From a virus, in the UHGV virus genome UHGV-1353888: 64,000 nt of DNA; one strand, 5' to 3'. Position 1 is the stretch's first letter. Each line of letters opens with the position of its first letter. Below the pieces are notes generated by a model that worked only from the letters and a program-made list of their open reading frames with translations, ran no database searches and had not been told where the DNA came from. Position numbers and translations under genes: made by a program. Below are positions 3,954 through 52,581 of the stretch, in pieces.

Positions 3954-4019
3954 CTCCGATAAGACTTCCAAGAACAAAGACCTTACAGCCAATGGGTGGA
4001 GAACCAAGACTGGAAAGTG

Positions 4020-4452
4020 TATGGATGCCGGAACATGGGGAGATGCCTATAGATTCCAGAAGGTCTTCTTTACCTTCGTAAAATCCAATCAGAAGATGCA
4101 ACCTCTTCTAGGTGAGAGTGCTCCACATTACAGTCCGTATTCCCCTACGTGTCCCGTCACCATAGCTCGTGGAACGAAGGTCGAGGTAGTTGATGCTTTT
4201 CGAATAAATATTTTCAGTAGTGAACGGAACCATCCTCCGTTTGAATTAAAACCCAATAACCTAACCACCAACCAATTCTTTCCCCTGCTTTACCACCCCT
4301 TCATTGAGGCCCAGCTTTATTATAGTTGGTATCCTATGATGCGCTTAATGTGTCAAGATAGAGCATTTTTATTGACACCACTGGGGTGTGTAACGTATGG
4401 TAAGAACCAACCAACTACGGTTAACACAGAACAACGTAATCAAATTATCTAA
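4020..4452 (+). CDS. Hypothetical protein (uncertain)
   Basis: The ORF fills the gap and ends with a TAATG overlap onto the next gene. Start chosen at the internal ATG 4020 because the track start overlaps the upstream gene. Confidence 0.3.
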
Positions 4453-31500: not shown

Positions 31501-34500
31501 GGAGATGGCACAGAACGTCGCCACCACCAAGGGAAGTATTGCGGGTATCGGATATGGTATCTTCTCTACTATCCTCAACAACCGCGCTGGTTTCAACCGC
31601 ATGATTCGTAAGGCCACGGGTGCTACCACCAAGGCCCCCGGTGTTTTCGGAAAGCTGGAAAGCTCTCTTGAAGGACCCGGCATCTTCAACCTCAAGGGTC
31701 TTCCTGGGAAGGAAAAGGCTATCTCCATTGCTAAACAAGTTGGTCGTCTCTCCGCCTCCGCCGTTGAAGGTGGCACGGAAGAACTGGCTGATGAAGCTTT
31801 GCAGTGGGCATGGCAGACCCTTACTCAGCATGGAGAAATCCGTGAAGAAGATATTGCCAGCGAGCGGGATGTATGGAATGCCGCCAGCAAGATTTTCATC
31901 CTCGGTGCAATCGGGGGTGAAGTCGGCCACGGGATTCAGGCCATGACTGCCCTGCCTCCGGAAGCTTCCAACCGAAGAGACCAAGCCATCCAGGCTCAGA
32001 CTCTCTACGGAGAAGCCATGAGGAATGCCCTGGATAGCGACGTGGAAGGTGCCAACACTACTCTGATTGAAGCATTGAAGGAAGGTCTTGACAAGAGTTC
32101 TGCCCTTGCTGATGCCGCCATCACGAGTAAGGAAGCCGCCATGTCGGTCGCCCGTAACGGGAACATCCAAGCTGACGAGAATGTCATCAACGAATGGTCC
32201 TCCATGATTAGCCAGTTGCCGGACGGCACTAGTGTTCAACTCAATAACTTCTCTGCTGAATACAGCAGGTTGAATAGGATTGGGGATGAAGCAGGTGCGG
32301 CTTCCCTGCATCAGGCTTTTGTTGAGGACATCGCGGCGAGCGATACCCTTACGGACACCCAGCGTCAGATTGCGGGGGAACTTATCCTACAGCTTACGCA
32401 GGGTACTCCCACCGCTGAGTTCGTGGAAGATGTTTCTACTCAGGTAGTTCTTCCAGAAGGCATTGAAGAGTTGGCCGCAGTTGAAGTAGAAGAAGCCCCC
32501 GCCCCGGTAACGGAAGAACTGAAGCCAGAGGGAGACCTTGTTGAGCAGGAGGTTGAGGAAGAAGTTGTTCAGATTGGGGAACGCGACTACGGGTATAATG
32601 CCCCGAACCCGGTTCCCTTTGTTCAGATGCTTTCCGATTGGTATACCAGTGAGACTCCCATTACCCCTGAGATTCGTGGGGAAATGAACGCCCTGCTTAC
32701 TGACCTTGAGCTTGAAGACCCGGACATCTATGACTTCATCACTGATGGTAAGGAAGATGTGGACCGTGCCACGGTTCGCCGACTTCTCACCGTGGCTAAC
32801 ATGACGGGACCCGATGGCCCCCTCGCTGTTGATATGAAGGGGAACACTGAAATTCAGAAGGGGAATGCCCTGCTGACGGACAAGACGGTATGGAGCAAGT
32901 ATGACAAGGATGTCGAGATACAGGATTCCAACTGGGCCGCAGATGTGTTTAATATGGTGGGCGAAGGAATGCAACCTATTCAAAACGTGCTCGACGATGT
33001 TCTCAATACTGTTCAGGATGAAAGAACCCGGAACAATATTAAAGACATTGTAGAGTTCCTTGAGGAACGTGGAGTTCCGGTGAGCGTGGCTACCATTCAG
33101 GGGGACAGCAACATTGCTGGTCTCACGATGATGGACCCGTCCTCTCCAGAACAGCATATCGCTCTGAACTTTAGCGCGAAGAATGTAAAATCCTCCCCTG
33201 CTGATGTCCTGCTCCACGAACTAACTCACGTTCTGGACAACCATCTGAGGGAGACAGACCCCCTGTATGCAGAACGCGTAGCAAGCATCGAAGAAATTGT
33301 CCGCTCCAACTGGGCCAACATCCAGAAGGAAGCGGAACGGGTGGCTCGCACTGCTGTAACTGAGGAGGAGCAGGCTGAGATTGACCAGTTCATTGCTGAG
33401 ATGGAACAGGCTTTGTTCAATAAGCAGACTGAGTTCGAGGGTGGACGTGAGTTCCTTCCTAATGTAATTACCAACCCCATCATGGGAGAGGTGATTGCAC
33501 AAGGCAATCTCCCGTTTGACCAAGCTCTCGACCAGTGGGCCTCCCCCAACAACCTTGCTCGAATCTCTCAGATTGGCAGAGGCAAGGTGAGCAGGATTGT
33601 TCATAACCTCATTAATGCTGTGTCCTCCATCCTCAAGGGTGCCCAGGTTGTTGAAGGGAAAGTTAATCCCAACGCCGCGGTTATTCGTGTGGAAGAAGGA
33701 ACCCTGGCTGACCCGACAAGGATGAAGATTGTTTCTCCGAAGCTGGCTGAATACAAGCCGGGAGTTGAAGACGAGAACGTATTCATTACGGACCGCGGCG
33801 TTGATGCCGCCCTCTTCTCGTCCTCTGAGAACTTTGTCGGAGCAGGGAAGAGACTATTCCGGACGGCGAATGTCAAGGGTGGATTCACCGCTGACAAACG
33901 TACTGGGAAAAAGGTTAAGGAATTCGCTGGTAACTTCCAGACTTACGTTAATGAACTTGTCGCACGAAACGAACGAACCAAGCGATATGTAACTCAGCAA
34001 ACGAAGGGAATGGAAGACTCCGAACGGGCTACCGTCATCAACTCCATCGTGAACTACACGGGCGATTTGGGCAACACGCTCGACCCGAAGGTTACTCGCC
34101 GTATCTTTGCGGAGACTAACAACAAGGTCGAACAAGCCAGGGTGGCCAGGGAGGCTGAGGTGGACGCGGCGAACAATGAGTACGCCAAGTTCATTGCGGA
34201 CCGGAGGAAGGCTATCATCCAGGCGGAGGCCAGGGTGAACGCCCTTGCCGGGACTCAAGCATTGCAGAATGTTGGAGTAGCTATTACCCAAGCTGTTCAG
34301 GTAGCTAAGGAAGTCCCCCAGGTGGACGAGAAGAACCCGATGGCTGTAGCCGCGGCTCGTTTCAGGAAGGCTCAGGAAGAACTCAACCCCGTGATGAAAG
34401 AGATTTACAGCACGTTGGACGAGGATGCTAAGGCCGAAATGAACGAAGCGTATGATAAGACCATGAAGGCCATTGCGGAAGACTTGGCTCAGGACTTCGA

Positions 34501-37500
34501 CAACCCTGCTGAAATCGTACCGGGCCTTCTCAGTATCGGTGGGCTTCAAAACGTTCCCAGTGTGGACGACTTGTCCGCAATGTTCACTTCGGTCATCAAG
34601 GCCAACAGGCTTGGATGGTTGAAGAAGGATGCCGATGCTGTGCGTGCCGCCAAGGATATAACCATAGCCCAGCAAGCCCGTAGAGAGCGCATAGCCCAAG
34701 CCGAAAAGAACTACCAGACGAAGGTAGGACGAGGAGGCATGAAGAATGGGGTATGGACTTCTCCTGGAACGGTATGGCTTGAGCGTGATGCGGCATTGAC
34801 TGCGGAGAAGAACCGGATGGAAACGGTATACGCCATGAAGAGAAATGAAGCCCGTAAGGAACTTCTCAAATATCCTTTTGGTGCCCGCCTGCTCAATGTG
34901 CTGGATGACAACCGAAGAGCTATTGCTACCATGGAAGCTAACCTGATGCACCGCCGCGGAGCCATTGGCCTCGGAACAAAGGTGAGGGACTTTACCTACC
35001 TTTCCCGAACGTTTGCCGCGGTAGGCAAGGAGTCCATCAACTTCCGTAAGGCTATGATGGAACTACTGGACAGCAACGGCGAAGTGAAGCCGGAGTTTAC
35101 CCACCTTGTAGGTATCCTAAACAATGCAATCCAAAGCTACATGAGAGAAAACATCTCCCGTTACAACCAGGGTATTTCAGAAACCCTCGACAACATGCTT
35201 GCTATGAGCAAGGTGGCTGATGAACTTGGTCTGGACGGTAGTGAATACCTTGGCTTCAAGGGGAAGGACGTATGGAAGAATGTAAGTGAATACCTGACGA
35301 AGGACCCGGCCCTGGCTGAGAGTGCTCTGAACACAATCAACAATGGTCACTGGAACGAGATTGCCAAGATGAAGGATGGCTCGGTTGAACTCCGTCTCAT
35401 TATCAACAAGGCGAGCCAGCTAGATAACCTGCTCGCCTCTGCTGATGGTGGGGAGAAGAGCCGACTCCGTAGCAAGATGCGTAAGGCGAAGGCAGACCTG
35501 ATGAACAAGGCGGCGGAAGACTATGTGCTTTCCAGTATGGGAGTAACCGATACTGACCTCCGCTCCTTCCTCCTCGGTCTAAATTCTCCGGAACAAATCA
35601 CGGAAGCATTCAAATCAACTCCTTACCTGGACTCAAGCGTAATCTCCAACCTGATGGGAACGGACGAAAACCTCCGAACCCGCATCAGCAACACCTTGGA
35701 TTATGTGAGAAAGTCCACCGCTATTGAAATGCAGAAGCAGGGGGTAAACCTGACCGCTAACCAGCGGGACATGTCCCTTCTTGCTGATGGTGAAGTAGCG
35801 GATGCCCTGATAGCTACCGCTCGGAATGTGTTCAAGGAGACCCTATCCAAGGAGCGTAACGAAGAAAACATCTTCGCCAATCGTAAGAACCTGATGGATA
35901 GTGAACTTCAAATTCTTGGAGTTCGCGGATTCAGCAATCTCACGGATGCCTTCGGTGTTATTCAAAACACCCTGTCCTCCCAGGGCAGAGCCTATGTCAA
36001 CCAAGTAATTACGCATGACGTAGCAAGGAGCCTTGAGAGGCACGGGGTTGTTACCGGGGAGAGGACGAAGGAGAATACTCACCTTCTGGAATTCCAGAAC
36101 AAGGCCAACCCGCTGAACGGAATGTACGCAGAAAGGGACATCGCCCTTGTCCTCTACCAAGCCATGCGACCTGACGAAGCAATTATGCGGGGTAAGGAAT
36201 TTGGGAAGAAGTTACAGAGCCATTGGGGTAACAACTGGGGAATGCTGAGAAGCATCGGTGGATTTGTTTCCATGCTGACCCTGGTCCGTACTCCCTCCGC
36301 TACCCTCCGTAACATGGCGGGGACCGTGGGGCAAAGCCTGAACGCAGGTGCTCTCCCGTTTGACAAGGGGGTTATCAAGGGATATGGAGAAGTGTACCAG
36401 CTTGCCCAGGACTTCGTTGTTGCGAACATCCTAAGTTCCGCGGGTTCCGTTGGTGTGAGAGGTGCAGTGAACAGTGAGATTATGGCGAACGCTGAGAAGC
36501 GATTCAACCAGTCCATGCAGAGGTATCGTGACCTGGGCCTGCTCGACGCGGGCGCGGCGAACTTCATGAAGGAACAGTGGAAGCAGGGGCTTAATGAAAT
36601 GAGCCAGAAAGAGGGCAGTGAAATCAGCTTGCCCGACGAGGACGCAATGTTCTCTTCGCTCGTATCGGAACTAGGAGACCGGAGCACTGCAAAGAAAGCG
36701 ATGGACCTCGCCAAGCGCATTGCGTATGGTACGTTCGTTTCGCCTATGAGCGTTGCCGCTTCTGCTTACTCCGTCCCTGACGTTATCGCCAAGATAATCC
36801 TCTTCAATGGGGAGAGCCACAAGGTAAGCAAGGTAGTGAAAGCTGAGCTCGCACAAGCTGAGAAGCTGAGTAGAGCAGGGAAGGAAGACAAGCTGACAAG
36901 CTACATGAAGGACGCTTTGGCCGCTAAGAAGGAGGGGACTCTTACTTCCTACATTGAACGTAGGGCGGCGGACAGGACGAAGAACCTTCTTCCCACGGGT
37001 GCAAGAACTCCTGACTGGGTGAATAAGGTAAGCATCTTTGGGATGCCCTTCTTCTCCTTCATGTACCACACTTGGCAGAGTGTCCCTTACAGCATTGGCT
37101 ATGGGATGGAAGAACTTCGCGCCGCAAGGTTTGCAACCAATACGGCAGATAAAGTCTCCCTCTACATGGATGCCACCCAAAAGTTTGGGGGGGCTATCCT
37201 GGGCCAGTATGCTATGATGGAACTGATGCGGTTTGCCCTTCCGATTGTTACTCAAGCAATCATGGGTATGGTCACGGGTGATGACGAAGAAGACAAGATG
37301 CAGATGCTCGAAGCAAGTTCGTTTACCCGTTGGCTTGCACGGAATGCTGGACTCTCCGCGGACTACGACCAGAACGGAGAACTCTTTTTCTGGTTTGACA
37401 AGGATAATGAAACCTTCATAGTCCAGGATGGTCAGTACCTTCTGCCCTATAAGAGCCTTGGTGAAACCCTGGGTGCTATTATCAACCTTGCTGGATTGAA

Positions 37501-38440
37501 TCCTTTCTCTGACAAGAGTGAGGCTAACCAATTCGAGGATGACTACACCGCCCAGCTTCTGGATTATGTTCAGAGCACGGCTGGCTCTCCCTCCATGTGG
37601 ATTCAAATGCTCATTGATATGGGTTCAAAGGAACCCCGTCAAAGCGCAGACCTGAAACAACTGGGTGGGGTATCAGCAATCCCGGAAGCCTTTGGGAATG
37701 CCCTGCTCATGAGCTTAGGACTCCGCCCTTCTGCTGAACTTGCGGGCGGTAGGACGCTCGACTGGATGGAAAGGATAGCCACGACTGTAAAGGATAACCT
37801 CCCCCTATGGCCTACTCTGGTTCAGGGGGTGCAGACCTGGACAGGAATGAACCCGGATAGTGAAAAGGCAGGGTGGTTGTTGAAGAACCTTGGCTTCGGT
37901 GTTCGTCGCCCCAAGAATATTAATGATGTCCTCCGGGACAGTCTTGCTAAAGGTAACAAGGACCTCTCCAATTCGTTGAAGAACCAGCGCATCATGGATA
38001 CCAACCTTTACACGGCTGACCTTAGCGATGCAGAGTATGACAAGATTATCGAGGCTGATAAGGCTATGGTAATTGAGCAGAGTATTTCCCTCGCTAATAG
38101 GTTCCTGGCGTTGAAGGGGTTCCTCAAGGGGATGGGAGTCAAGGACGTTGACACGGTTCTTGAAGCATCTGCTCAGGAAGCGGGCATATCGTTGAAGGCT
38201 ATGGATGACCTTATCTCTGGCCGGGCCAAAGACTTCATCTCTAACCAGAGGTTTGACAAGATTGAAGAGACGAGAGACCGCTTGCTTAACAGGCCCGGTA
38301 TCACTCCGGAAGCTAAGAAAGCCATCCTCCGCCAGTTCCAACAAGCTGAGAAGGTGTATGACATCGACGCAGTAGATATTACTTCCAGCTTGATTGAGCC
38401 GGATAATGTGGAGCAGGAGGTGAAGAGCCAGAAGAGATAG
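28586..38440 (+). CDS. Giant virion-type protein (3284 aa) with one HExxH zincin-like motif
   Basis: Uninterrupted 9.85-kb ORF. Motif VLLHELTHVLDNH at about 33220. The N-terminus is Lys/Glu-rich. No DxDGD two-barrel RNA-polymerase motif was found by eye. Confidence 0.55.
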   Translation: MVQKGHSLYGLCPFLFTREGLTNILYASMPNDTNQEPLTYRSFGPKNPQTEYYKQLRREQSQTRWQEGRQERAQEAQQTPLSEEAKFLDTLNKIFKQEEEASYTQEQRAYTQEQRAISAEDRGIRKKEKEDSKKEKQASKRDKQIRDWLSGINTRTPGKSLGFSTEAEYEDYLTKTKPETLVDITKFKANDPEEIRRARSAVEEMGASLVLSGEHPQVAEGSFRSLEPQDKANRLLSKSKYGLTKTEDGSYVVDERFLARVNDPSTAGMRNENIARAIVNNLKSIISKEDERGRSDYLIPDVEEVTNLVRNARAKNRETYQEYEKIRERFAVPKGEEEQKAVAPEKVGEQNGGDSSRTQPTLVQHVLSEVDRFFTVNPEAMEYLNTLGAKTDEEIPGAIEDQKFREQARRGIELKDQLARAISEANPAIDLRTVRNELDDDALLYREAVSQFYGGEIPEEVSSAILNRTTQLAQQRQALVASDYAKAEKDAIAEHLKSLGLDEGVALSMGISGLTNRHIAESDTGMGTMRSAVNEALQQYQSGAGQLAASMSFGEQKGYRDPLSHMQWVNIGDGKMAYAFVDPGTNERVGNGFIVDFGNVDQQAKALGVSREAYLDNLALPFKMGNLNATDEANSLFAWDKLNGKLVENATAESTGGLAYYDNDLIERSVLRAVEAGAPAEVVDKYRENLLQLQKQNAKDMIDQMLGQYEAVANLVASDSKTLDTLFPGIRLAMKAMHNDFRDYYAENKGKMTNEEIISSFLADEQNRQGFLAITMAGAKTVARYKAAAIGASQFVSEGSRIIGLGTGDPAKYNNMWENLHKEEQAINTITTRAGGVAEWGAEIGNVLLQTAETTTTGGIGGVSGRVGTMTGRLAKLFGEAVALKAATPGTMRLGQVITKLGGGVERLVSGPGKSALTQASSRGSSLAISAKLFTDAAAPTFGEVSNATYNEEMARLAKDPETSGLSEAIRMEMAQNVATTKGSIAGIGYGIFSTILNNRAGFNRMIRKATGATTKAPGVFGKLESSLEGPGIFNLKGLPGKEKAISIAKQVGRLSASAVEGGTEELADEALQWAWQTLTQHGEIREEDIASERDVWNAASKIFILGAIGGEVGHGIQAMTALPPEASNRRDQAIQAQTLYGEAMRNALDSDVEGANTTLIEALKEGLDKSSALADAAITSKEAAMSVARNGNIQADENVINEWSSMISQLPDGTSVQLNNFSAEYSRLNRIGDEAGAASLHQAFVEDIAASDTLTDTQRQIAGELILQLTQGTPTAEFVEDVSTQVVLPEGIEELAAVEVEEAPAPVTEELKPEGDLVEQEVEEEVVQIGERDYGYNAPNPVPFVQMLSDWYTSETPITPEIRGEMNALLTDLELEDPDIYDFITDGKEDVDRATVRRLLTVANMTGPDGPLAVDMKGNTEIQKGNALLTDKTVWSKYDKDVEIQDSNWAADVFNMVGEGMQPIQNVLDDVLNTVQDERTRNNIKDIVEFLEERGVPVSVATIQGDSNIAGLTMMDPSSPEQHIALNFSAKNVKSSPADVLLHELTHVLDNHLRETDPLYAERVASIEEIVRSNWANIQKEAERVARTAVTEEEQAEIDQFIAEMEQALFNKQTEFEGGREFLPNVITNPIMGEVIAQGNLPFDQALDQWASPNNLARISQIGRGKVSRIVHNLINAVSSILKGAQVVEGKVNPNAAVIRVEEGTLADPTRMKIVSPKLAEYKPGVEDENVFITDRGVDAALFSSSENFVGAGKRLFRTANVKGGFTADKRTGKKVKEFAGNFQTYVNELVARNERTKRYVTQQTKGMEDSERATVINSIVNYTGDLGNTLDPKVTRRIFAETNNKVEQARVAREAEVDAANNEYAKFIADRRKAIIQAEARVNALAGTQALQNVGVAITQAVQVAKEVPQVDEKNPMAVAAARFRKAQEELNPVMKEIYSTLDEDAKAEMNEAYDKTMKAIAEDLAQDFDNPAEIVPGLLSIGGLQNVPSVDDLSAMFTSVIKANRLGWLKKDADAVRAAKDITIAQQARRERIAQAEKNYQTKVGRGGMKNGVWTSPGTVWLERDAALTAEKNRMETVYAMKRNEARKELLKYPFGARLLNVLDDNRRAIATMEANLMHRRGAIGLGTKVRDFTYLSRTFAAVGKESINFRKAMMELLDSNGEVKPEFTHLVGILNNAIQSYMRENISRYNQGISETLDNMLAMSKVADELGLDGSEYLGFKGKDVWKNVSEYLTKDPALAESALNTINNGHWNEIAKMKDGSVELRLIINKASQLDNLLASADGGEKSRLRSKMRKAKADLMNKAAEDYVLSSMGVTDTDLRSFLLGLNSPEQITEAFKSTPYLDSSVISNLMGTDENLRTRISNTLDYVRKSTAIEMQKQGVNLTANQRDMSLLADGEVADALIATARNVFKETLSKERNEENIFANRKNLMDSELQILGVRGFSNLTDAFGVIQNTLSSQGRAYVNQVITHDVARSLERHGVVTGERTKENTHLLEFQNKANPLNGMYAERDIALVLYQAMRPDEAIMRGKEFGKKLQSHWGNNWGMLRSIGGFVSMLTLVRTPSATLRNMAGTVGQSLNAGALPFDKGVIKGYGEVYQLAQDFVVANILSSAGSVGVRGAVNSEIMANAEKRFNQSMQRYRDLGLLDAGAANFMKEQWKQGLNEMSQKEGSEISLPDEDAMFSSLVSELGDRSTAKKAMDLAKRIAYGTFVSPMSVAASAYSVPDVIAKIILFNGESHKVSKVVKAELAQAEKLSRAGKEDKLTSYMKDALAAKKEGTLTSYIERRAADRTKNLLPTGARTPDWVNKVSIFGMPFFSFMYHTWQSVPYSIGYGMEELRAARFATNTADKVSLYMDATQKFGGAILGQYAMMELMRFALPIVTQAIMGMVTGDDEEDKMQMLEASSFTRWLARNAGLSADYDQNGELFFWFDKDNETFIVQDGQYLLPYKSLGETLGAIINLAGLNPFSDKSEANQFEDDYTAQLLDYVQSTAGSPSMWIQMLIDMGSKEPRQSADLKQLGGVSAIPEAFGNALLMSLGLRPSAELAGGRTLDWMERIATTVKDNLPLWPTLVQGVQTWTGMNPDSEKAGWLLKNLGFGVRRPKNINDVLRDSLAKGNKDLSNSLKNQRIMDTNLYTADLSDAEYDKIIEADKAMVIEQSISLANRFLALKGFLKGMGVKDVDTVLEASAQEAGISLKAMDDLISGRAKDFISNQRFDKIEETRDRLLNRPGITPEAKKAILRQFQQAEKVYDIDAVDITSSLIEPDNVEQEVKSQKR

Positions 38441-40452: not shown

Positions 40453-40498
40453 GTGTCATACAAAATAAAACCCCAGGAACGCGCCAACGTTCCTGGGG
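40453..40498 (-). terminator. Terminator hairpin followed on the - strand by the TTTTATTTTGTATGACACAAG motif (terminator-promoter module)
   Basis: Perfect 11-bp stem CCCCAGGAACG/CGTTCCTGGGG. On the - strand it is followed by TTTTATTTTGTATGACACAAGAG, about 50 nt before the ATG. Confidence 0.55.
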
Positions 40499-40655
40499 TA
40501 GGTGTATTCATGTATTAGCCGCAAAAATTTTAGTGTAACAATTCGTCAACTAGTTCGTAGCAATAGGGGGTATAAAGATGGTTGAACTCAGGTGAGGTGT
40601 TGAGTAAGTGCAGAGGGAAAGGGTTGGGTGGAGCCGATGGATTCAAGAAACTGTT

Positions 40656-42491: not shown

Positions 42492-42851
42492 CTAATCATC
42501 ATTCAATTCTTTTGTTATGATGTCAATGCTTGTTTTGCAGTCAGACAATAATACTTTCTTTTCATCAGCCATTTCCTTGGGAACCTGCGTACCCCGGACC
42601 TTGGCTTCGAGACTAGTAACCCTGTCGAGTATGGAACGAAGGGATTTGATTGCCGCAGGAGTGTCCAGGTTGGCCTTCCACATTTGCTCAGTCTCTGCTA
42701 TCTTAATGACATAGATGAACAGGTCAGACCGGAGGGTGTAGAAATACCGGGCTTGGTTGGCTTGGGATATTACTTCTTCAAGATGGTCCGCATGAAGGGG
42801 GCCAGAAAGAAGAATGGCTATAGCTGATATTAGTGGGGTTGGTTTCTTCAT
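42492..42851 (-). CDS. Small secreted protein with an N-terminal signal peptide
   Basis: MKKPTPLISAIAILLSGPLHA followed by a polar helical domain. ATGA overlap with the upstream gene. Confidence 0.45.
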   Translation of the reverse strand: MKKPTPLISAIAILLSGPLHADHLEEVISQANQARYFYTLRSDLFIYVIKIAETEQMWKANLDTPAAIKSLRSILDRVTSLEAKVRGTQVPKEMADEKKVLLSDCKTSIDIITKELNDD

Positions 42852-43300
42852 TTTCGGTGTGCTTGTAAAATGGCTAGTTCGTGGGATTCAAAGTATGAGG
42901 TATTTACGTGGGAACATATTTCTCCATCAGTGATTTCAGTCCATGCCAACTCATAACCGCGGGCCTTGTCGAGAGCTTCTTCCATTGCTTCTTTGTCTTC
43001 CCCAAACTCACTGGGTTTATCTATGTATTCCTTTGAGTTTCGTATTATCTCAATGGCAGTCCATAAGGAATCAGTGATGGTAAAGTAACGAAGTTCCTGG
43101 TCGAAATCCATCTTTCCAAATCCGCTATAGAGAGCAACTACGTAGTTTCCTGGAAGTCCCGCGGCTCTGGTCAACAGGAAAGTAATCTTCGGTTCGCCTG
43201 GAATGGGGGCCTCTTCTACTTCCTGCTCCAGGCTGGGCTTAAACTGAATGTCTAGTTCAATCATCTTTGAGCAGTGGGGACACGGTATTTGATTTGTCAT
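42848..43300 (-). CDS. Hypothetical protein with an N-terminal CxxC
   Basis: 150 aa; CPHCSKMIELD at the N-terminus. Confidence 0.4.
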   Translation of the reverse strand: MTNQIPCPHCSKMIELDIQFKPSLEQEVEEAPIPGEPKITFLLTRAAGLPGNYVVALYSGFGKMDFDQELRYFTITDSLWTAIEIIRNSKEYIDKPSEFGEDKEAMEEALDKARGYELAWTEITDGEICSHVNTSYFESHELAILQAHRK

Positions 43301-43659
43301 TGTGCTTCCTCCTTTTGTTTGAGTTCTTCCAGGAGAACCTCCTCATTGCCCACCTGTATATTTTGAGTGTTCAGGTTGATAATCTTCCTATGCCCATCAC
43401 CTGTGTAATTTAGTTCAGCCAGATAGATGTCATGTTCGAATAATTGCCATGCTCTTTTCCTCTTTTCATAGGTTCCAAAGATGTCACTAGGCCAGTTGCC
43501 TACATTCTCTCGGTCTTCAACAAGAGAGATAGCTTCCTCCAATGTATTCACAACCGTCAGGTATTCTAGTTTAATAATGCGGCCTACCTCTTTGTAGATG
43601 ACTACACGGAAATAATTACCTGGGGTACGATAGATTGAAAATGTAAGTTGTGGGTTCAT
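43297..43659 (-). CDS. Paralog-family protein, copy 1 (TFxIYRT...FRVxIFKE...TLEEAI family)
   Basis: MNPQLTFSIYRTPGNYFRVVIYKE...NTLEEAISLVEDRENVGNWPSDIFG. 4-nt ATGA overlaps on both sides. Confidence 0.55.
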   Translation of the reverse strand: MNPQLTFSIYRTPGNYFRVVIYKEVGRIIKLEYLTVVNTLEEAISLVEDRENVGNWPSDIFGTYEKRKRAWQLFEHDIYLAELNYTGDGHRKIINLNTQNIQVGNEEVLLEELKQKEEAQ

Positions 43660-44015
43660 TTCTTGCTCAGTTCTCTCTTTTTGAATTCCATGAGAAGGTC
43701 AAACTCTTTTTCATCCATAAGGTTTACGGCGATGTTATAGACTACTCCCCGGCCAGCGTAGATGCAAGCTTCCATGAGAAGTGCCGCGTCATCATTAGGT
43801 ACATTCTTAAAGAAAATCCATCTGTCTTCATCATCATCAAACCCATCGTCTGGTCGTTTCTTGTAGTTATTCCTGTCTTCCGCTACCTGGATAGCTTCCT
43901 CCAGTGTATCAACTACTTCAATATGTTTAGTAAGGAAAACCAGGGTGTCTTCTTTGAAAATACTTACCCTGAACTTGTTCTTTTTGGTTCGGTGAATTGA
44001 AAAAGTTAATATCAT
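43656..44015 (-). CDS. Paralog-family protein, copy 2
   Basis: MILTFSIHRTKKNKFRVSIFKED...VDTLEEAIQVAEDRNNYKKRPDDGFDDDEDRW. Confidence 0.55.
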   Translation of the reverse strand: MILTFSIHRTKKNKFRVSIFKEDTLVFLTKHIEVVDTLEEAIQVAEDRNNYKKRPDDGFDDDEDRWIFFKNVPNDDAALLMEACIYAGRGVVYNIAVNLMDEKEFDLLMEFKKRELSKK

Positions 44016-44368
44016 TTATTCTCTCCTTCCATTTCGGCTTGACATTTCATAAGTAGGGAAAGCTCTTTCCGGTTTACATGGCTCTCGTATAGAGCGTATT
44101 GTATTTCTTTGTTGTGGTCTACATAGCATTCCAAGAGAGCACGGTCATACTCAGTGCGTCTCCAGAATTCACGTCTATCTTCATCCGTTTCAAAGCCGTC
44201 ACTCAGTCGGTTCTTATAATGCTTCCTGTCCTTGGCCAAGGCGATAGCTTCCTCTAGCGTATCAACCACCTCAATGTGTTTGATGGCGAACGAGAGAGCG
44301 TCTTCTTTGAAAACAATGACCTTGAATTTATTATCGTTGGTCCTATAGATTGTAAAAGTTAATTTCAT
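44012..44368 (-). CDS. Paralog-family protein, copy 3
   Basis: MKLTFTIYRTNDNKFKVIVFKED...VDTLEEAIALAKDRKHYKNRLSDGFETDEDRREFW. Confidence 0.55.
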   Translation of the reverse strand: MKLTFTIYRTNDNKFKVIVFKEDALSFAIKHIEVVDTLEEAIALAKDRKHYKNRLSDGFETDEDRREFWRRTEYDRALLECYVDHNKEIQYALYESHVNRKELSLLMKCQAEMEGENK

Positions 44369-44700
44369 TTGTCTAGTAGGGTTTTAAGGAGGGAGTATTC
44401 ATTAGAGTCAAGAAGGTAGTCACCGTAGATTTTATATTCTAAATCCCCTTCGTCATTAATCCAGGTTACTATTAGGGGTGGGTCTGTATTTGTCATCCAG
44501 AAACTATTTCGAGCAGGGTCCGTTTTGAATTTATCATCAGGTTTCTTCTCCAAGCTATCCCATTCTTTCACCAGTTGAACAGCCTGTTTCAAGGTATCAA
44601 ATTCATCAATGTATAGGGGGTAGGACTGATACCTGTCTTCTTCGAAAATAATTACTCGGAAGTTGCCTTCATCAGTTCGTAATATATCGTAGGTTTTCAT
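44365..44700 (-). CDS. Paralog-family protein, copy 4
   Basis: MKTYDILRTDEGNFRVIIFEED...FDTLKQAVQLVKEWDSLEKKPDDKFKTD. Confidence 0.55.
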   Translation of the reverse strand: MKTYDILRTDEGNFRVIIFEEDRYQSYPLYIDEFDTLKQAVQLVKEWDSLEKKPDDKFKTDPARNSFWMTNTDPPLIVTWINDEGDLEYKIYGDYLLDSNEYSLLKTLLDK

Positions 44701-45047
44701 TGGGGTAATTCTTTCTCTATAAATTCAATAAGCTTGGTAAGTTCGTCAGGGTCTACTCTAGACTGATACAGGTTACATGCAATTTGGTTGTCCGTATTCA
44801 CATAAAATTCCAGAAGCTCCACATCTCTGAGTAAACTTCTCCATATGTCTTCCCTTTCATCATCAGATTCATAGCCATCATCCAGCAGGTCCCGATAATC
44901 TTCCCTGTGTCTGGCTATCCATAATGCTTCATCCAAGGTATAGGTTGTTGCCATGTGCTTGACATAGAAGTTCCTACTATCTTCTTTGAAAATAAAAACC
45001 CGGAACCTATTGTTAGGGGTTCTATAAAGGGTGAATGTAATTTTCAT
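44697..45047 (-). CDS. Paralog-family protein, copy 5
   Basis: MKITFTLYRTPNNRFRVFIFKED...YTLDEALWIARHREDYRDLLDDGYESDDEREDIW. Confidence 0.55.
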   Translation of the reverse strand: MKITFTLYRTPNNRFRVFIFKEDSRNFYVKHMATTYTLDEALWIARHREDYRDLLDDGYESDDEREDIWRSLLRDVELLEFYVNTDNQIACNLYQSRVDPDELTKLIEFIEKELPQ

Positions 45048-45382
45048 TTTAAAAAGGCATCTGCAATTTGTTTTCTTTGAGTGAGCTTAACCTCCCGAAT
45101 AGTGAAGCCAAGTCTTTCCTTAAACGTATATACCGTGGAATAGGCCATCTTGTTTTTGCAGGGATAATAAGTAAGAAGCGTTCCCATTCTTGAGACATTA
45201 TCAAAGCCGTCACTCGGCCACTCCTTGTAAGTATCCCTACCCTTAATGAGCGAGATGGCCTCCTCGAACGAATCCATATACTGGACGAGATGGACACAGT
45301 TTCGATGGGTAGCCGTCTCTTCGAACAAGAAAATACTATAGTACGAATCGTCCATTTCGTACAGTTCAAACGTTATGTGCAT
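45044..45382 (-). CDS. Paralog-family protein, copy 6
   Basis: MHITFELYEMDDSYYSIFLFEE...MDSFEEAISLIKGRDTYKEWPSDGFDN. Confidence 0.5.
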   Translation of the reverse strand: MHITFELYEMDDSYYSIFLFEETATHRNCVHLVQYMDSFEEAISLIKGRDTYKEWPSDGFDNVSRMGTLLTYYPCKNKMAYSTVYTFKERLGFTIREVKLTQRKQIADAFLK

Positions 45383-45738
45383 TAGATTAAAGAAGGGGTT
45401 TAAGGGATTTATAAATACTGGAATTAACCGCGGCGGGATAAATATGTTTGACTATTTTGGTAAATCCCATTGCTGGTTTAACGCTAGTCTGAACAAGAAA
45501 CTTTGTACTTCTCCTGGAGTATAACCTCTGCACATTAGCAGGATAGATTACATCGGGGAGGGTAGTGTTTACGTCAAAGGTAGAGTATAGATTCTTAATG
45601 TACGTAATGGCCTCTTCGAGCGAATAGGTCTATAGCCATCCTTAGCCGTCAAGAGCAAATCGTAGGTTAAGTATTTTTCTTCTTCGTTCATATGTCTTAC
45701 TATAGTATGTGATTTTTAAATGTCGAGATTATTTTTTG

Positions 45739-46536
45739 TCATTCTCTTTCAAGAAACTTAATCTCGTCGTATTTTGATTTGACTTTTTCAAGGAAGGATT
45801 TGAGCATAGTTCTTTCTAATTTGGTAGCCGTCCTTGGGAGCCTAAAGTGATTCAGGGTTTGTCCTGTATGTCCTTTCTTTCCAGAGTTCTCATTAACAAG
45901 AGATACCATAACAGGAATACGGGAGGTGTTGCTTACCCTGAAATAGGTGTGTTGGTCAGGTGTCCCGTTAATATCTACAAAATTTATATCCTCAATCCTT
46001 TTCATAACTTCCTCCAATGTTTTGAAGATACTACTCTCGATAGCTTGGGAAGATGTGGTCGTTTCCCTGTAGAAAGTGAGAGCATACTTGTCTTCTAGCT
46101 GTAGATAATGCACGGAGAAGGTTACATGGATTCCATTATCCTTACGGTTTTCCCTCTCAATAAAAGCCTTGGTTTCATCATATAGTTCGGTTACTTTCAG
46201 CCATTCGTCAAGAGAAGGAGGGCCCTCCTGGTATTCACCTATGAATACTTCGAGTTGTCCTATGTCGCTAAGACAAAGCTCAACCAGAACATGAAGATTC
46301 TTAAAACGAAGGAATTCTTTGGTGGCTTCTATCTCGCTTCCATATGTACAAAAAGTAATGAGGTTCCTGCTCTTGCAAAACTTAATGACATAATCCAGTT
46401 TCTTATGGCTTATAATCCCCAAAACTTTGAAGGAATACATGGCGGAAGAAGTCGTCTCTTCGGTTGCTACCCCCACATACTTTTTTGATTGGGGGTGATA
46501 GTACAGGCCAAAGGTAATGTGTTTCAAGTTCTTCAT
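45739..46536 (-). CDS. Two-domain fusion homolog of the paralog family
   Basis: Start at the internal ATG (MKNLKHITFGLYYHP...KYVGVATEE). A second domain, IHVTFSVHYLQLEDKYALTFYRE...KTLEEVMKRIED, also matches the family pattern. Confidence 0.45.
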   Translation of the reverse strand: MKNLKHITFGLYYHPQSKKYVGVATEETTSSAMYSFKVLGIISHKKLDYVIKFCKSRNLITFCTYGSEIEATKEFLRFKNLHVLVELCLSDIGQLEVFIGEYQEGPPSLDEWLKVTELYDETKAFIERENRKDNGIHVTFSVHYLQLEDKYALTFYRETTTSSQAIESSIFKTLEEVMKRIEDINFVDINGTPDQHTYFRVSNTSRIPVMVSLVNENSGKKGHTGQTLNHFRLPRTATKLERTMLKSFLEKVKSKYDEIKFLERE

Positions 46537-46541
46537 TTTAA

Positions 46542-47123
46542 TTATAGGGGCATTCTTGAAACGATGGTGAGTTCCTTGGAAAGAATAACGGAGGCCCATG
46601 AGAGGCGCATATACTTTGCAAGTTCCGTCAGGAGGTTGAGGCTCAAACAAGCGGTATTTCCAAGCCGTCTTTCGGGCTCTACTCCGTTCTTGTCCAGACT
46701 GATACTAAGGTGAAGAGCAAGGAAAGCCAGGGCCAGCTTTGGAAGATTCTCACATTCCTTTAGAAGGCTTGCCACCTGCTTTTTGTCCAACGTTGAATAA
46801 GAACTCCTGTTCTCCATGTCAATACCATGGCCGTGAATCTTGGCAAGGTTTTTATTGTAGCAATGCAAGGCGCGGGTGAATGAAGAGTTGAATACATGGT
46901 TCAAGTCCTTCCGGTGTTCACTACAGAACTCAATGGGGTTCTCAACCCGGCACAAAGTAATAGCATCCTGAATCAGAAATGCCTTAGAAGTTGCGGGAAC
47001 CATAAGGCCAAACAATACATTTTCAGGCGTTGTTTTTTCAGTATAGGCCCGTTCAATAAGAGCCTTGCTGGTTCCTTCTTCGGTAAAGGTGAATTCGTTT
47101 TCGGAAATATTATCGTTCATCAT
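46542..47123 (-). CDS. Hypothetical protein
   Basis: 193-aa ORF. Confidence 0.4.
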   Translation of the reverse strand: MMNDNISENEFTFTEEGTSKALIERAYTEKTTPENVLFGLMVPATSKAFLIQDAITLCRVENPIEFCSEHRKDLNHVFNSSFTRALHCYNKNLAKIHGHGIDMENRSSYSTLDKKQVASLLKECENLPKLALAFLALHLSISLDKNGVEPERRLGNTACLSLNLLTELAKYMRLSWASVILSKELTIVSRMPL

Positions 47124-47286
47124 TTTTGTATAGGTTATTAAGTAGGTTAATGTTGCTTTTAGGATTCTGTAGTTGCAGGATGGATTTTCTAAAAAATAGA
47201 ATGAGGGCTAGGCTAGCTGGAATCAATACCGCCAGAATGGACATGAATGCTATTAACAGTAGAACCAAGAAAAGAATCTTCATCAT
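47110..47286 (-). CDS. Small hydrophobic membrane peptide (58 aa), translationally coupled at both ends
   Basis: MMKILFLVLLLIAFMSILAVLIPASLALILFF.... Its start overlaps the upstream stop (ATGA) and its stop overlaps the downstream start. It is below the 60-aa cutoff of the ORF track. Confidence 0.4.
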   Translation of the reverse strand: MMKILFLVLLLIAFMSILAVLIPASLALILFFRKSILQLQNPKSNINLLNNLYKNDER

Positions 47287-47861
47287 AGAGTTATCTTGCT
47301 TGTGTCAAGTTTGTTCTTCAAATAATCCAGTTCACGGGGGGTTAACTTGTTAAATTGGAACACCTTAATTCTTTGTTCGTCAAGCATAAGAGGCTCTTTA
47401 TCATTAACAATAAGCCTTCTCTCCTTGTTGAGGGGTTTCCGGGTTATGGTGTTGATTTGTGAAAGAGTCCGCATAGCCACCCCGAAAGATTGCGCTTGAA
47501 AATGCCTGATTATTTTGTAAGTTGTACTATTATAAATCTGGACATACAATTTAGAGTCAGGCAAGCGGTGAATGCTGAAACTCTTTTCCGGAGACATAGG
47601 CGTAATTTGGTAGTCAATAATTAGGGAATCCCCTTCACGGACTACAAAGCCGTCAGTCAAATTCTCCAGCATTAAGTGCGCCATGGAGATAATGCAAGGT
47701 ACTGGATTGGCAAACCACACTTTCATTTTGTAATGGCAATTATATTCAGTCTTCATCTGCGTGCAACTAGGACCATATACCCTCACATCCTTACTACTGA
47801 AATAACAGAGGGTTAGAAGTTGAGACTGCCATGCACGAAGGCAGTTCATTTTATTTGTCAT
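47283..47861 (-). CDS. Hypothetical protein
   Basis: 192-aa ORF. Confidence 0.4.
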   Translation of the reverse strand: MTNKMNCLRAWQSQLLTLCYFSSKDVRVYGPSCTQMKTEYNCHYKMKVWFANPVPCIISMAHLMLENLTDGFVVREGDSLIIDYQITPMSPEKSFSIHRLPDSKLYVQIYNSTTYKIIRHFQAQSFGVAMRTLSQINTITRKPLNKERRLIVNDKEPLMLDEQRIKVFQFNKLTPRELDYLKNKLDTSKITL

Positions 47862-48144
47862 AATTTTTATTGAGTAGGCTATAAAGTTCTGTCCAGGTTT
47901 TTACTTCGTTGATAAGTTCCTTTTTGAAGAAGGCAACCCTTGCATAGGTTGGAGTGGCGATTAAGACCGCCATGCGGTGAGGTGAATGAAAAAGCCGTCT
48001 CTGAAATGTGGGGAAGAGTTCTTCCCTGTTAATGTGATAAAGCTCCACATAGACCACGGGAAAGGCATTGGAGATTTGTTTTTCTCTGCTCTCCTTCTTC
48101 CGGAACCCTATGCTTTCAAGCTCTAAAATGTAGCCGTCAATCAT
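47851..48144 (-). CDS. Hypothetical protein
   Basis: 97-aa ORF overlapping its neighbours by a few nt. Confidence 0.4.
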   Translation of the reverse strand: MIDGYILELESIGFRKKESREKQISNAFPVVYVELYHINREELFPTFQRRLFHSPHRMAVLIATPTYARVAFFKKELINEVKTWTELYSLLNKNYDK

Positions 48145-48818
48145 TTTGCAAAGAAGTTAGACGTTGACCGGATATAGGGGCGGGTATAGTGCAGTCTCAT
48201 GCTAGGGTAAACTTCCTTTTCCAATACGTCTTCCAACTCATAAGAGCTTTTCAAAACTTTCTGAATAAGGACTTTGGCTTTTTCTACCGCTTTAGAATGG
48301 TTCTTGAAAGCTTCTTCAATCTTGACAAGCTCACTATTCACGAAGTTTATGCACTTGTCCAGTTCCGTTTTAAAGTTAGGGTTAAGCCGTCCATTTTGAG
48401 AAGTGGTAATACCCTCCAGAACATACCGTTCATAACGGGAACTCCATGTGTCTTCCCCGTAAATATCCTTAACTCCGGTAGGGAGCATGACGCGCAGGGA
48501 AATAGCGGGGAAGAAGGTGCGTGAAGAATAGTTGTCTACGCTTCCCGGAGCAAGGACGCTTGCCCCTCTAACATAATCATCTCCTCGGAAGTGCCTATTG
48601 AGAATATGACTAACATTACTCCAATCCTTTTCCCTCATAACCTTAAATTCGCCTGACTTTGTTTTAAAATCTGGACTGTCAAAAACGACTTTGAGATATT
48701 CAAGTGCATCCTTAAGCCGTTCATAGAAATATTGAAGTCCTTTCAAGTCACGCATGGCATTATCATCTTCTTCAACGAATTTCCGAATAAAGTAGTTCAT
48801 CATATCATTATTATTCAT
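48141..48818 (-). CDS. Hypothetical protein
   Basis: 225 aa, preceded by the conserved leader AAATAGAAAGACAAAAAGAAATG. Confidence 0.45.
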   Translation of the reverse strand: MNNNDMMNYFIRKFVEEDDNAMRDLKGLQYFYERLKDALEYLKVVFDSPDFKTKSGEFKVMREKDWSNVSHILNRHFRGDDYVRGASVLAPGSVDNYSSRTFFPAISLRVMLPTGVKDIYGEDTWSSRYERYVLEGITTSQNGRLNPNFKTELDKCINFVNSELVKIEEAFKNHSKAVEKAKVLIQKVLKSSYELEDVLEKEVYPSMRLHYTRPYIRSTSNFFAK

Positions 48819-48850
48819 TTCTTTTTGTCTTTCTATTTTTGTTTGTAGTT

Positions 48851-49543
48851 TTAGAGATTGTAGAATTTAATATATTCTTCCCTGCTTTTAAATGTCCTCA
48901 CCTTCCCCCCGTGACCGTTGTATACGATTGTTTCAATTCCTTCGCCATTCGAACGGTTGTCATAAACATGAATAGTAGAGCCGTCTTTTAAAGTAAAAGC
49001 CGTAGCAATTCCCTTATACTTAGGGTTTTTACGGGAGACTACACTGCGTGCGAGGTTGTAATTAGTATACACACGCCCCATTTTTTGAGGCCACGGGTAT
49101 GGGGTGCTATCCAGGCTCATAAACACAAGGTCCATGCCGTTAGGATAGGAAAAGAAGTCCCATTTTTCCGGAGCTAGTTCGGCATCCCATTTGACTAGGT
49201 GAGTTAGCGAAAATTGGAACTGTGCATAGAACGGAACCAAATCCTCAAAGGCGAAAAGGAAACGTGCTCCCTGCTCAATAGCGTACTTAACCATTTTTTT
49301 ACCAAATCCTTTCCCCCGGAATAGGTGAGAGACTATGAGGGAAACAAGTTCCCCCTCCGCGGTTATCGAAAATACTCCGACGATGGAGCCGTCATTTACT
49401 AGCCTGAAACACTTGCATCCATTATCCCTGTACCAGTCACCGGGGTAAACGTCAACATGTGCTTTCTCCATGTCTGACAGATAATGGCGCAGTTCCCCTG
49501 CAAGGCTCTCCATTGCATAAGGATTTATCTTTTCAATATACAT
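48851..49543 (-). CDS. GNAT-family N-acetyltransferase domain protein with a C-terminal extension
   Basis: GNAT motif A: IVGVFSITAEGELVSLIVSHLFRGKGFGKKMVKYAIEQG (R-G-x-G-x-G). A C-terminal domain of about 100 aa is uncharacterised. Conserved leader upstream. Confidence 0.55.
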   Translation of the reverse strand: MYIEKINPYAMESLAGELRHYLSDMEKAHVDVYPGDWYRDNGCKCFRLVNDGSIVGVFSITAEGELVSLIVSHLFRGKGFGKKMVKYAIEQGARFLFAFEDLVPFYAQFQFSLTHLVKWDAELAPEKWDFFSYPNGMDLVFMSLDSTPYPWPQKMGRVYTNYNLARSVVSRKNPKYKGIATAFTLKDGSTIHVYDNRSNGEGIETIVYNGHGGKVRTFKSREEYIKFYNL

Positions 49544-49665
49544 TTTCTTTTGTCTTTCTATTTGTTGTGCCGGACGTTTTGGCCTCCGGCTCGCCTTACA
49601 TGAACAGTTATACCATAGGAGCGGGGAAAAACAAGACTAATCTTTTTTGTCTTGTGTCATACACC
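49544..49665 (-). promoter_or_regulatory. Repeated promoter-leader module, copy F (divergent)
   Basis: Contains CTTGTGTCATAC (the - strand reads GTATGACACAAG) about 115 nt upstream of the ATG, plus the leader AAATAGAAAGACAAAAGAAAATG. Confidence 0.45.
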
Positions 49666-50476
49666 AATTAAACGCCGCTTTACCTTGTTCAGAAATGGCC
49701 CATGGACTAAAAGAACGGTGGACAATACGGGGGCGGGTAACCACTTCTGCTAGAATACATCCATCTTCTTCCGTGCTTTTATCACAATTGCATGGCATAG
49801 GGGTTCCCTTGCATTCTCCTCCCCTGTTTTTACGAATATGGCTCTCATAATCCATTGTTAGTAGCAATTCCTTTAACTCTTTCATGGCCTTATAATTATG
49901 GAAAGGGTAAGCCATTCGCAAAGAGGTAGAGCTAAAATTCTCTGACTCTAAATAGATTGTGAGATAAAACTCCTTATTCTCCGTGTTTTCCGTAACGTGT
50001 GCAGTATACACGGCTTCCTCACCCTCCAAAATGTTCACAACGTCAGCCTCATACTCAATATATTGAGTTTCATGGAGTTCTTCCGTTTTTGCAGGTTGTT
50101 TCGGAGCGTCCTTAACGGGCGTAGCGTACACATCAACCGTTGCACAGGGGAGGCCAAAACAGGGATATTGATTAAAAGAATCCTCCGTTCCCTCAATTTC
50201 GACAATTACCTTCCATTCAGCGCGGAAATCGTCAAGTTCAGCGCGGTCTTCCTCGCTAAGTTCGCCTTCATCATCTCCATACCCCATTAAATAAGGGAAT
50301 GCCCATTGAGGAACGCCCTCAACCCTTTCGTAACTGTCTGACGTTTCGTCCATTTCGGTCAATACAAGATAGGTACTTCCGCAATGGGGGCATAGTCCGT
50401 TTAGAGGCGTAACGCTTCGGTTATCGCATTCCATGCAGTCATATTTTTCGTTTTCGTCGATAATAACAGTGCTCAT
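49637..50476 (-). CDS. Hypothetical protein with an N-terminal Zn-ribbon (CxxC...CxxC)
   Basis: CMECDNRSV...CPHCGSTY, then an acidic domain. Conserved leader and promoter module upstream. Confidence 0.45.
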   Translation of the reverse strand: MSTVIIDENEKYDCMECDNRSVTPLNGLCPHCGSTYLVLTEMDETSDSYERVEGVPQWAFPYLMGYGDDEGELSEEDRAELDDFRAEWKVIVEIEGTEDSFNQYPCFGLPCATVDVYATPVKDAPKQPAKTEELHETQYIEYEADVVNILEGEEAVYTAHVTENTENKEFYLTIYLESENFSSTSLRMAYPFHNYKAMKELKELLLTMDYESHIRKNRGGECKGTPMPCNCDKSTEEDGCILAEVVTRPRIVHRSFSPWAISEQGKAAFNWCMTQDKKD

Positions 50477-52004: not shown

Positions 52005-52125
52005 TTTCTTATGTCTTTCTAATTTTTGTTGTTATTACGGGGTTGTGTCTCCCTTACGCATTTCTTTATACCATTTTTGAGAGAGGATGCAAGGAGAAAT
52101 GTTGAAACCTTGTGTCATACAGAAG
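52005..52125 (-). promoter_or_regulatory. Repeated promoter-leader module, copy B
   Basis: CCTTGTGTCATAC at 52108-52120 (overlaps the upstream stop codon). Leader GCGTAAGGGAGACACAACCCC...AGAAAGACATAAGAAAATG. Confidence 0.5.
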
Positions 52126-52324
52126 ATTGTGGTTCTTTCGGAACCGTTATCATGCCATACTTTTCAGGGTTGTAAAAGTCCTGCCAAGTGAGATACTCCT
52201 TGCTTTTACAATTGGGGCAAGTCTCCTCATTAAGGGGTACAAGTCCTTTCCATCCGCAACCATTGCACACAACGCAATCACCTAAGCCGAAATAAGTTGT
52301 AAATTCCATGGTGATTAAAGACAT
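52115..52324 (-). CDS. Small Zn-ribbon protein
   Basis: CVVCNGCGWKG...CPNCKSKEY. Its stop codon lies inside the GTATGACACAAG motif. Confidence 0.4.
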   Translation of the reverse strand: MSLITMEFTTYFGLGDCVVCNGCGWKGLVPLNEETCPNCKSKEYLTWQDFYNPEKYGMITVPKEPQSSV

Positions 52325-52581
52325 TCGATTACATGGTCACTTTCCGGAATGCGGAGAATGGGAACAGGGGAATCATCCAAATTTTCAATGTCATACTCTT
52401 CCAAAAAATCTTTAATGGGGTATTCTAAAAACATGAGTTTTATGTCCATTAGGGATAACGCTTCTCCCTGCATTTCTTCAATATATTCAAAAATAACTTT
52501 GGCCCCCATAGGGGAAAAATCACAACCCGCTTGAACTAAATAATTATGAAATGGTTGATAGCTATTTATTTTTAAATTCAT
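52315..52581 (-). CDS. Small acidic hypothetical protein
   Basis: 88 aa, with a conserved leader upstream. Confidence 0.4.
   Translation of the reverse strand: MNLKINSYQPFHNYLVQAGCDFSPMGAKVIFEYIEEMQGEALSLMDIKLMFLEYPIKDFLEEYDIENLDDSPVPILRIPESDHVIECL

Follow-up and report, generated by a model that had tools for sequence, protein, structure and literature searches.

A variable tandem array of overlapping paralogous genes in the uncultured phage UHGV-1353888, a candidate panel of small inhibitor proteins

What would a phage gain from carrying, one directly behind the other, six diverged copies of the same small gene? The question is posed by a minus-strand locus of UHGV virus genome UHGV-1353888, analysed here as a single stretch of 64,000 nucleotides (the window). 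Six open reading frames (ORFs) of 111-120 amino acids (aa) occupy positions 43297-45382, in the tandem, overlapping arrangement and at the coordinates given by an earlier reading of the letters alone (the sequence-only reading). Counted from the downstream end, they are c8 (43297-43659, 120 aa), c7 (43656-44015, 119 aa), c6 (44012-44368, 118 aa), c5 (44365-44700, 111 aa), c4 (44697-45047, 116 aa) and c3 (45044-45382, 112 aa). Each ORF closes in ATGA, and the ATG inside this tetranucleotide is the start codon of the next gene. The coupling extends to two further genes downstream, at 42848-43300 (150 aa) and 42492-42851 (119 aa). The sole real intergenic gap of the locus, upstream of the array, holds a sigma-70-like promoter match on the minus strand (TCGACA-16-TATAGT, 45699-45726) that agrees with the consensus at 10 of 12 positions and whose sequence is kept in relatives; it is a consensus match only, and the promoter scan as a whole showed no enrichment over shuffled sequences. 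The array genes are probably read from a single leftward transcript. No structured RNAs or tandem DNA repeats were found in the array region.

The six proteins can be aligned end to end, with pairwise identities of 22-50% and BLASTP E values of 4e-5 to 3e-32, well beyond chance, as had been supposed when they were called paralogues. One pair, the 111-aa and the 120-aa copy, lacks direct BLASTP significance and is joined via the other copies. At the DNA level, direct repeats recur at a spacing of 335-362 nucleotides (nt), which is the gene length, and the 5' ends of the genes and the segment encoding TLEEAI retain 60-84% nucleotide identity between copies. Copies c3, c4, c5, c7 and c8 were each placed by BLASTP and by a hidden Markov model (HMM), and c6 is the copy modelled by AlphaFold2. 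The HMM, built from the six array types and their orthologues and run on 1318 ORFs, picks up two more paralogue types, c1 and c2, carried by relatives. The family is also larger than first described within the window itself, since the downstream 150-aa protein (42848-43300, minus strand, in ATGA overlap with c8) is a member: its C-terminal 110 residues match model positions 2-108 of an HMM built without it (E 8.9e-8), and it matches c8 in BLASTP (1e-5). It begins with a 35-residue N-terminal extension that bears one CPHC motif, and a complete family domain lies behind this at about residues 38-147.

Between the array and the gene upstream of it, the frameshifted remnant suspected from the sequence proved to be a pseudogene of c2 (45387-45691, minus strand), recognised by DNA alignment with three relatives (L001, L009 and L010) and by the HMM. 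A 55-nt internal deletion has caused the frameshift; c2 of the relatives is intact at 118-119 aa. The C-terminal fragment of 80 residues still matches the family HMM at E 1e-14.

AlphaFold2 modelling of the 118-aa copy c6 from 24 family sequences gave a predicted local distance difference test score (pLDDT) of 92.8 and a predicted template modelling score (pTM) of 0.87 in all five models, and the family domain is confidently predicted to be a single compact alpha/beta domain. The model has strands at residues 2-9, 15-22 and 27-35, helices at 38-46, 48-53 and 62-74, a hairpin of 76-83 and 89-93, and a C-terminal helix at 100-117. The beta pair, helix and acidic tail read from the sequence thus cover just the first two-thirds of this domain, and the N-terminal element is three strands and a helix, not a beta pair. 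The DDGFxxDEDR segment, described earlier as an acidic tail, is in the model an internal loop entering helix 62-74, with the beta hairpin and the long C-terminal helix after it. This acidic segment ranks among the better-conserved parts of proteins whose isoelectric point (pI) ranges from 4.4 to 7.8 and whose net charge ranges from about -10 to +1. Over 22 highly diverged members from the two phage clades described below, the conserved features are hydrophobic core positions, an L-E-x-A helix, a P-x-D loop and a near-invariant Glu at the end of strand 2; no catalytic residue set is apparent among the conserved positions of these members. The array proteins are of soluble type, having neither a signal peptide nor a transmembrane segment. 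An RNase-H-like nuclease is ruled out by the topology and by the absent catalytic residues.

The protein family is new to every library searched, and nothing comes convincingly close to its fold. Searches of Pfam, PHROGs, NCBIfam and PADLOC were without significant result, in agreement with the initial failure to put a name to the family. When 24 members were searched one by one against Pfam at E values up to 10, no SUKH, SuFu or Imm family was matched, and a weak match to YbjQ_4 (E 0.0045, below the cut-off) was confined to the c3 group. The best match of a sequence profile search of the PDB was an uncharacterised protein at E 0.034. Foldseek searches of the PDB and BFVD returned nothing at E 0.001 or better, the N-terminal half alone resembling some uncharacterised phage proteins of 60-65 aa, and no relationship to a characterised anti-CRISPR or anti-defence protein was found by sequence and fold in these databases. 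YegP/DUF1508 (PF07411), a lead suggested by the F-x-I-Y-R...F-R-V pattern, found no sequence or fold support. An exhaustive HMMER search over 1.84 billion representative proteins yielded 11 proteins, and two word-indexed searches of 5.8 billion clusters yielded 17 and 42. The matches have no informative names, 'hypothetical protein' being the sole source label seen, and every match that was traced derives from the same two groups of uncultured phage contigs of about 60-73 kb.

The first of these groups (clade 1) was compared at 12 loci, including the window. Across all 12, identity is 88-100% in the downstream flanking genes and in p193, the gene next to the array on its upstream side; farther upstream it drops to 55-84% in three loci (L007, L008 and L011). 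The array between these flanks is far less stable. L007 and L008 carry eight copies (c1-c2-c3-c4-c5-c6-c7-c8), L009 seven (c1-c2-c3-c4-c5-c6'-c8), and L010 six, a c1/c2 hybrid being followed by c3-c4-c5-c6'-c8. L015 has a different set of six (c2-c3-c4-c5-c6-c8), L011 has c1, a remnant and c4-c8, and L013 and L014 have c3-c8, with the 265-aa gene that lies upstream of the array and c2 present only as fragments. The shortest arrays, those of L001-L003, consist of four copies, c2-c3-c4 and a c5/c8 fusion. The window itself has the c2 pseudogene and c3-c8. In all, 4, 5, 6, 7 or 8 copies are found in relatives whose flanks are mostly about 90-100% identical, so that copy-number variation, for which the sequence-only reading had proposed a search, is real among near-identical phages.

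The intermediates of this turnover are still visible. In-frame hybrids of c5/c8, c6/c8 and c1/c2 are joined at homologous N-terminal positions: one consists of 'MKTYDIQRTEQE' followed by the entire c8, another of 'MKLTF' followed by c8, and another of 'MHEEN' followed by c2. Judged from their sequences, such hybrids are what unequal recombination between adjacent copies would be expected to produce. Gene remnants are present in the window, L011 and L013. The most variable copy between relatives is c6, which in the window has 63% identity to its L007 orthologue.

A second, deeper clade (clade 2) comprises phages of about 62-73 kb with the same gene order, giant ORFs of 3232-3243 aa and a p193 with 50% identity to that of clade 1. 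The position of the array is occupied in these phages by 6-8 overlapping genes of 94-142 aa, all of which match an HMM made from clade 1 only (E 1e-14 to 2e-3, in a small set), and four more family members are dispersed farther upstream. One of the dispersed members (C157; L017 3359-3832) is fused to a C-terminal zinc ribbon of the form CxxC-x13-CxxC. A separate small ORF of the window (52118-52336, minus strand) encodes a zinc-ribbon piece 48% identical to the clade-2 one. Presence/absence variation and hybrids are seen in clade 2 as well. In L024, an insertion of 1.27 kb (3977-5248) that encodes a 403-aa protein resembling TnpB / IS605 OrfB splits the array gene of type G, which shows that the type G copy is dispensable and that the transposon is active in these phages. 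No one-to-one orthologues are common to both clades. Because the second clade keeps an equivalent, likewise variable array, the array is old and maintained, and yet never identical twice.

Selection on the copies was estimated as omega, the ratio of nonsynonymous to synonymous substitution rates (dN/dS), from pairwise Nei-Gojobori comparisons among orthologues. Omega is 0.67 for c2, 0.59 for c3, 0.59 for c4, 0.37 for c5, 0.38 for c6, 0.24 for c7 and 0.18 for c8, in comparison with 0.08 for p193 and 0.06 for a DUF3310 protein, both constrained neighbours. Values of 0.18-0.67 indicate that the copies are real, selected genes under looser constraint than core genes. These values show no gene-wide positive selection; there is one weak local excess. 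Pooled pN/pS is 1.71 in the loop between strands 2 and 3 and 0.08 in the first helix, and minimum changes number 24 nonsynonymous to 4 synonymous in this loop versus 151 to 87 elsewhere (Fisher p = 0.02, uncorrected). An excess of amino-acid change in the loop between strands 2 and 3 is therefore suggestive.

Immediately upstream of the array, across a gap of 47 nt, lies a gene for a 265-aa protein (45739-46536, minus strand) with two family-like domains at about residues 3-133 and 134-256, detected by hhalign and HMM. In profile-profile comparison by hhalign with the full family domain, the C-terminal half reached a probability of 86.6% (E 4.5e-6); for the N-terminal half the probability was 72.8% (E 3.2e-5). 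Ten genes of the neighbourhood served as controls and remained at or below 1.1%, with the exception of the C-terminal half of a 192-aa gene (6.2%). An HMM enlarged with the second clade also picks out the 265-aa protein from 1318 ORFs (E 5e-7). AlphaFold modelled this protein poorly (pLDDT 50), yet a beta-beta-beta-alpha pattern appears twice in the model. The two domain copies suspected in this large protein are thus upheld by the alignment of both halves and not by the structure model; from the sequence profiles and the pattern in the low-confidence model, the protein probably comprises two tandem family domains. The 192-aa gene (47283-47861, minus strand) is kept in both phage clades and has a possible distant family domain in its C-terminal half (KSFSIHRLPDSKLYVQIYN..., residues 90-193; hhalign E 0.006, HMM E 0.25), which is suggestive; we treat its membership as unproven. 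Neighbours of 97, 193, 225, 119, 85, 102 and 164 aa were negative for the family domain in hhalign.

The window is phage DNA. Its recognised genes include a large terminase (PHROG 2, E 8e-15), a tail-tip domain, a VapE-type primase-helicase, an HNH endonuclease, a DUF3310 protein and a GNAT acetyltransferase, and it contains no tRNA. Megablast of the locus against 50,697 GenBank phage records gave no match, nor did tblastn against GenBank phages with one array copy and with the large terminase. The conserved neighbour p193 has no relative among 185,579 bacterial genomes, and hence nothing points to a prophage state. LoVEphage, likewise of gut origin and of similar size (68-72 kb), was weighed as a possible identity and rejected: it has 9 tRNAs and integrases and is a prophage in Bacteroides dorei, in contrast to the window with no tRNA and a p193 that has no bacterial-genome relative. 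The relatives of the window are contigs of about 64-73 kb from metagenome assemblies, whose sample labels suggest human-gut cohorts. One of the runs, ERR1620315, may belong to the Crohn's disease project of He et al. 2017, which is a study of faecal metagenomes.

The array lies inside a run of about 17 kb of small minus-strand genes, placed between the end of the plus-strand structural block and the replication genes. The genes of this run have no known function and are read from the other strand than the structural genes, in keeping with the accessory block in which the sequence-only reading had placed the multi-copy family. GC content is 0.40-0.42 in the array region versus 0.45-0.54 in the structural block. 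This gene layout would be compatible with an early or accessory role. No family with a helix-turn-helix (HTH), such as an Aca-like regulator, was found in the flanking genes scanned, several small neighbours lying outside the scan, and no toxin domain was recognised among the neighbours scanned. The 193-aa gene p193 itself (46542-47123, minus strand), directly upstream of the array, is under stronger constraint than any other gene of the block and found no relative in Pfam, PHROGs or the PDB; a functional link between it and the array is possible.

Several other features of the surroundings may be recorded. The structural block is closed by a 3284-aa ORF (28586-38440, plus strand), whose counterparts measure 3232-3284 aa in both clades; it has no Pfam domain, and a crAss-type RNA polymerase was dismissed in the absence of the DxDGD motif. 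A strong terminator-like hairpin with a 13-bp stem and a T run (40499-40470) falls within the first codons of a 195-aa ORF. Genes of 150 aa and 181 aa that relatives have between the 164-aa and the 195-aa genes are lacking from the window (40470-40655, minus strand); some relatives have there a gene of 180 aa plus an extra one of 158 aa. The GNAT, DUF6926 and 225-aa genes (48141-50476, minus strand) have 55-61% identity to those of L007, L008 and L011, in which the array flanks have 88-99%, and this low identity indicates, from sequence comparison, mosaic exchange of that segment.

Tandem expansion of paralogues in a viral accessory region is an already known phenomenon. In poxviruses, 'genomic accordions' such as the amplification of K3L expand and contract a host-interaction gene in tandem by recombination, and the copies are near-identical and transient; the array copies, unlike these, are old (22-50% identity) and individually maintained, and the array is conserved in two clades. 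The host-takeover module of Bacillus phage SPO1 (gp37-gp60) is a dense set of same-strand small genes of unknown function that are mutually unrelated. Like it, the array stands outside the structural and replication modules; unlike it, the array is one paralogous family.

A closer likeness is found in bacteria. Homogeneous polyimmunity loci and polyimmunity proteins are made of tandem distant paralogues with tiny spacers, in one orientation, with content that varies between strains and with fused multi-domain forms (Zhang et al. 2012, PMC3482391), and such sets are thought to neutralise a shifting range of toxins (PMC3482391). These loci have at least four small paralogues in tandem on the same strand; here the locus has the six intact genes c3-c8, the c2 pseudogene and the 150-aa member, with ATGA overlaps throughout. 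In both, the number and type of members vary between close genomes (here in both phage clades), and multi-domain fusions stand beside the arrays (here the 265-aa protein). The differences are that polyimmunity loci reside on bacterial chromosomes and the array in a lytic-looking phage genome, that the array domain lies outside the SUKH, SuFu and Imm families with no toxin partner recognised in the scanned neighbours, and that the array copies overlap by ATGA instead of being merely closely spaced. Among viruses, several uncharacterised anti-CRISPR paralogues have been mentioned inside single archaeal virus genomes (PMC11065993). They resemble the array in that one viral genome has multiple diverged paralogues of one small family, but they have no sequence or fold relationship to the array proteins.

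Since the anatomy of the locus matches that of polyimmunity loci point for point, and the anti-CRISPR paralogues of archaeal viruses provide a viral precedent, we tentatively favour a reading by analogy, to which we give somewhat less than an even chance: that the copies are expressed together as a polyvalent panel of small proteins, binders or inhibitors, directed against variable host or competitor proteins. Such a panel would stand outside any known immunity, anti-CRISPR or DNA-mimic family, because the tests of membership in these families that were applied failed. The copies would be made together during infection and would act as one-to-one binders or inhibitors. Every copy would present the same core and one shared acidic site, formed by the Glu that closes strand 2 and by the P-D-D-G-F loop, and the copy-specific parts would be the loop between strands 2 and 3, helix 2 and the beta hairpin. 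Individual copies could each neutralise another variant of a defence or toxin protein of the host, or of a rival-phage protein, and the set would be renewed by unequal recombination of neighbours, which duplicates or deletes copies and creates in-frame hybrids. The 265-aa protein would apply the same principle in a fused two-domain form. Co-transcription, the timing of expression, the action by binding and the host defence or toxin targets are what we infer, and a host-takeover or anti-defence role would be the most plausible one. A more specific version is possible but doubtful: the array could be a phage-borne 'polyimmunity' cassette in which each copy is specific for, and inhibits, a single allele of a host abortive-infection toxin or defence effector that is polymorphic, the content tracking the defence repertoire of the host strains and the 265-aa protein being bivalent.

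Several observations weigh against the inhibitor-panel reading. There is no gene-wide positive selection, omega being below 1 in all array genes tested; the excess in the loop between strands 2 and 3 fails correction for eight regions, and the pairwise and polymorphism counts behind it ignore phylogeny and recombination. The array has no linked gene for a target, a toxin or a defence protein. The predicted fold draws on an alignment of little depth, with 24 sequences of which most are paralogues. Close coupling of translation and a mostly fixed gene order would equally fit the subunits of a complex, and zinc ribbons (the clade-2 fusion, and the lone CPHC of the 150-aa protein) might instead indicate proteins that bind nucleic acids.

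The last two points lead directly to other explanations. The copies may be interchangeable or co-assembling parts of phage machinery, for example a hetero-oligomeric scaffold, a chaperone set or accessory factors of transcription or replication, with coupled translation to set their stoichiometry. We consider this unlikely, even though ATGA coupling runs over seven consecutive junctions, gene order is mostly kept within each clade, nearly all copies have the conserved Glu and P-D-D-G-F loop, and the strongly constrained p193 is always immediately upstream. An obligate complex of fixed composition fits poorly with near-identical phages that live with 4 to 8 copies in differing subsets, with the tolerated hybrids and pseudogenes, and with two clades that have no one-to-one orthologues. 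The same variability might instead mean that the array is a by-product of recombination, a slowly decaying relic of amplification whose copies are mostly redundant or near-neutral. Loss, fusion and pseudogenes are indeed frequent, chiefly at the upstream end (the 265-aa gene, c1 and c2), omega is raised to 0.6-0.7 in c2-c4, and a transposon insertion was tolerated. What makes decay quite unlikely is that omega is below 1 for all copies and that c7 (0.24) and c8 (0.18) are well constrained; moreover, copies at 22-50% identity still have a foldable core, and in the second clade a comparable array of 6-8 copies persists, together with four dispersed members.

That the proteins are small nucleic-acid-binding regulators, which would reprogram host or phage expression through paralogues with different target sequences, is suggested by the zinc-ribbon fusion in clade 2 and the CPHC extension of the 150-aa protein. 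We give this only a slim chance, as the sequences have no conserved basic patch, the copies are mostly acidic to neutral, and no nucleic-acid-binding family was matched. Acidic mimics of DNA or protein, decoys of the Ocr or ArdA type, were among the functions first proposed for the array and now seem very improbable. Copies c4 (pI 4.67) and c5 (pI 4.36) are moderately acidic and the D/E-rich segment DDGFxxDEDR is conserved, but c1 and c2 (pI about 7.8) and c6' (pI 6.6) are neutral, and the net charge never goes past about -10 or -11. The acidic segment is internal to a predicted compact alpha/beta fold, not an elongated helical mimic, and no solved mimic was matched by fold or sequence.

Whatever its function, the array is a clean case of rapid viral gene gain, loss and fusion, and public metagenomes still contain the intermediates. 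Should the copies act as inhibitors of variable host proteins, they would form a compact natural library on one small, confidently foldable scaffold, to which one clade would contribute at least nine paralogue types and each genome of the other at least 12 family members. The phages that carry it are uncultured but apparently common, and the human gut is their probable source. The idea of 'polyimmunity' would then extend from bacteria to phages, and the individual copies would give a direct handle on unknown defence or toxin systems of the host.

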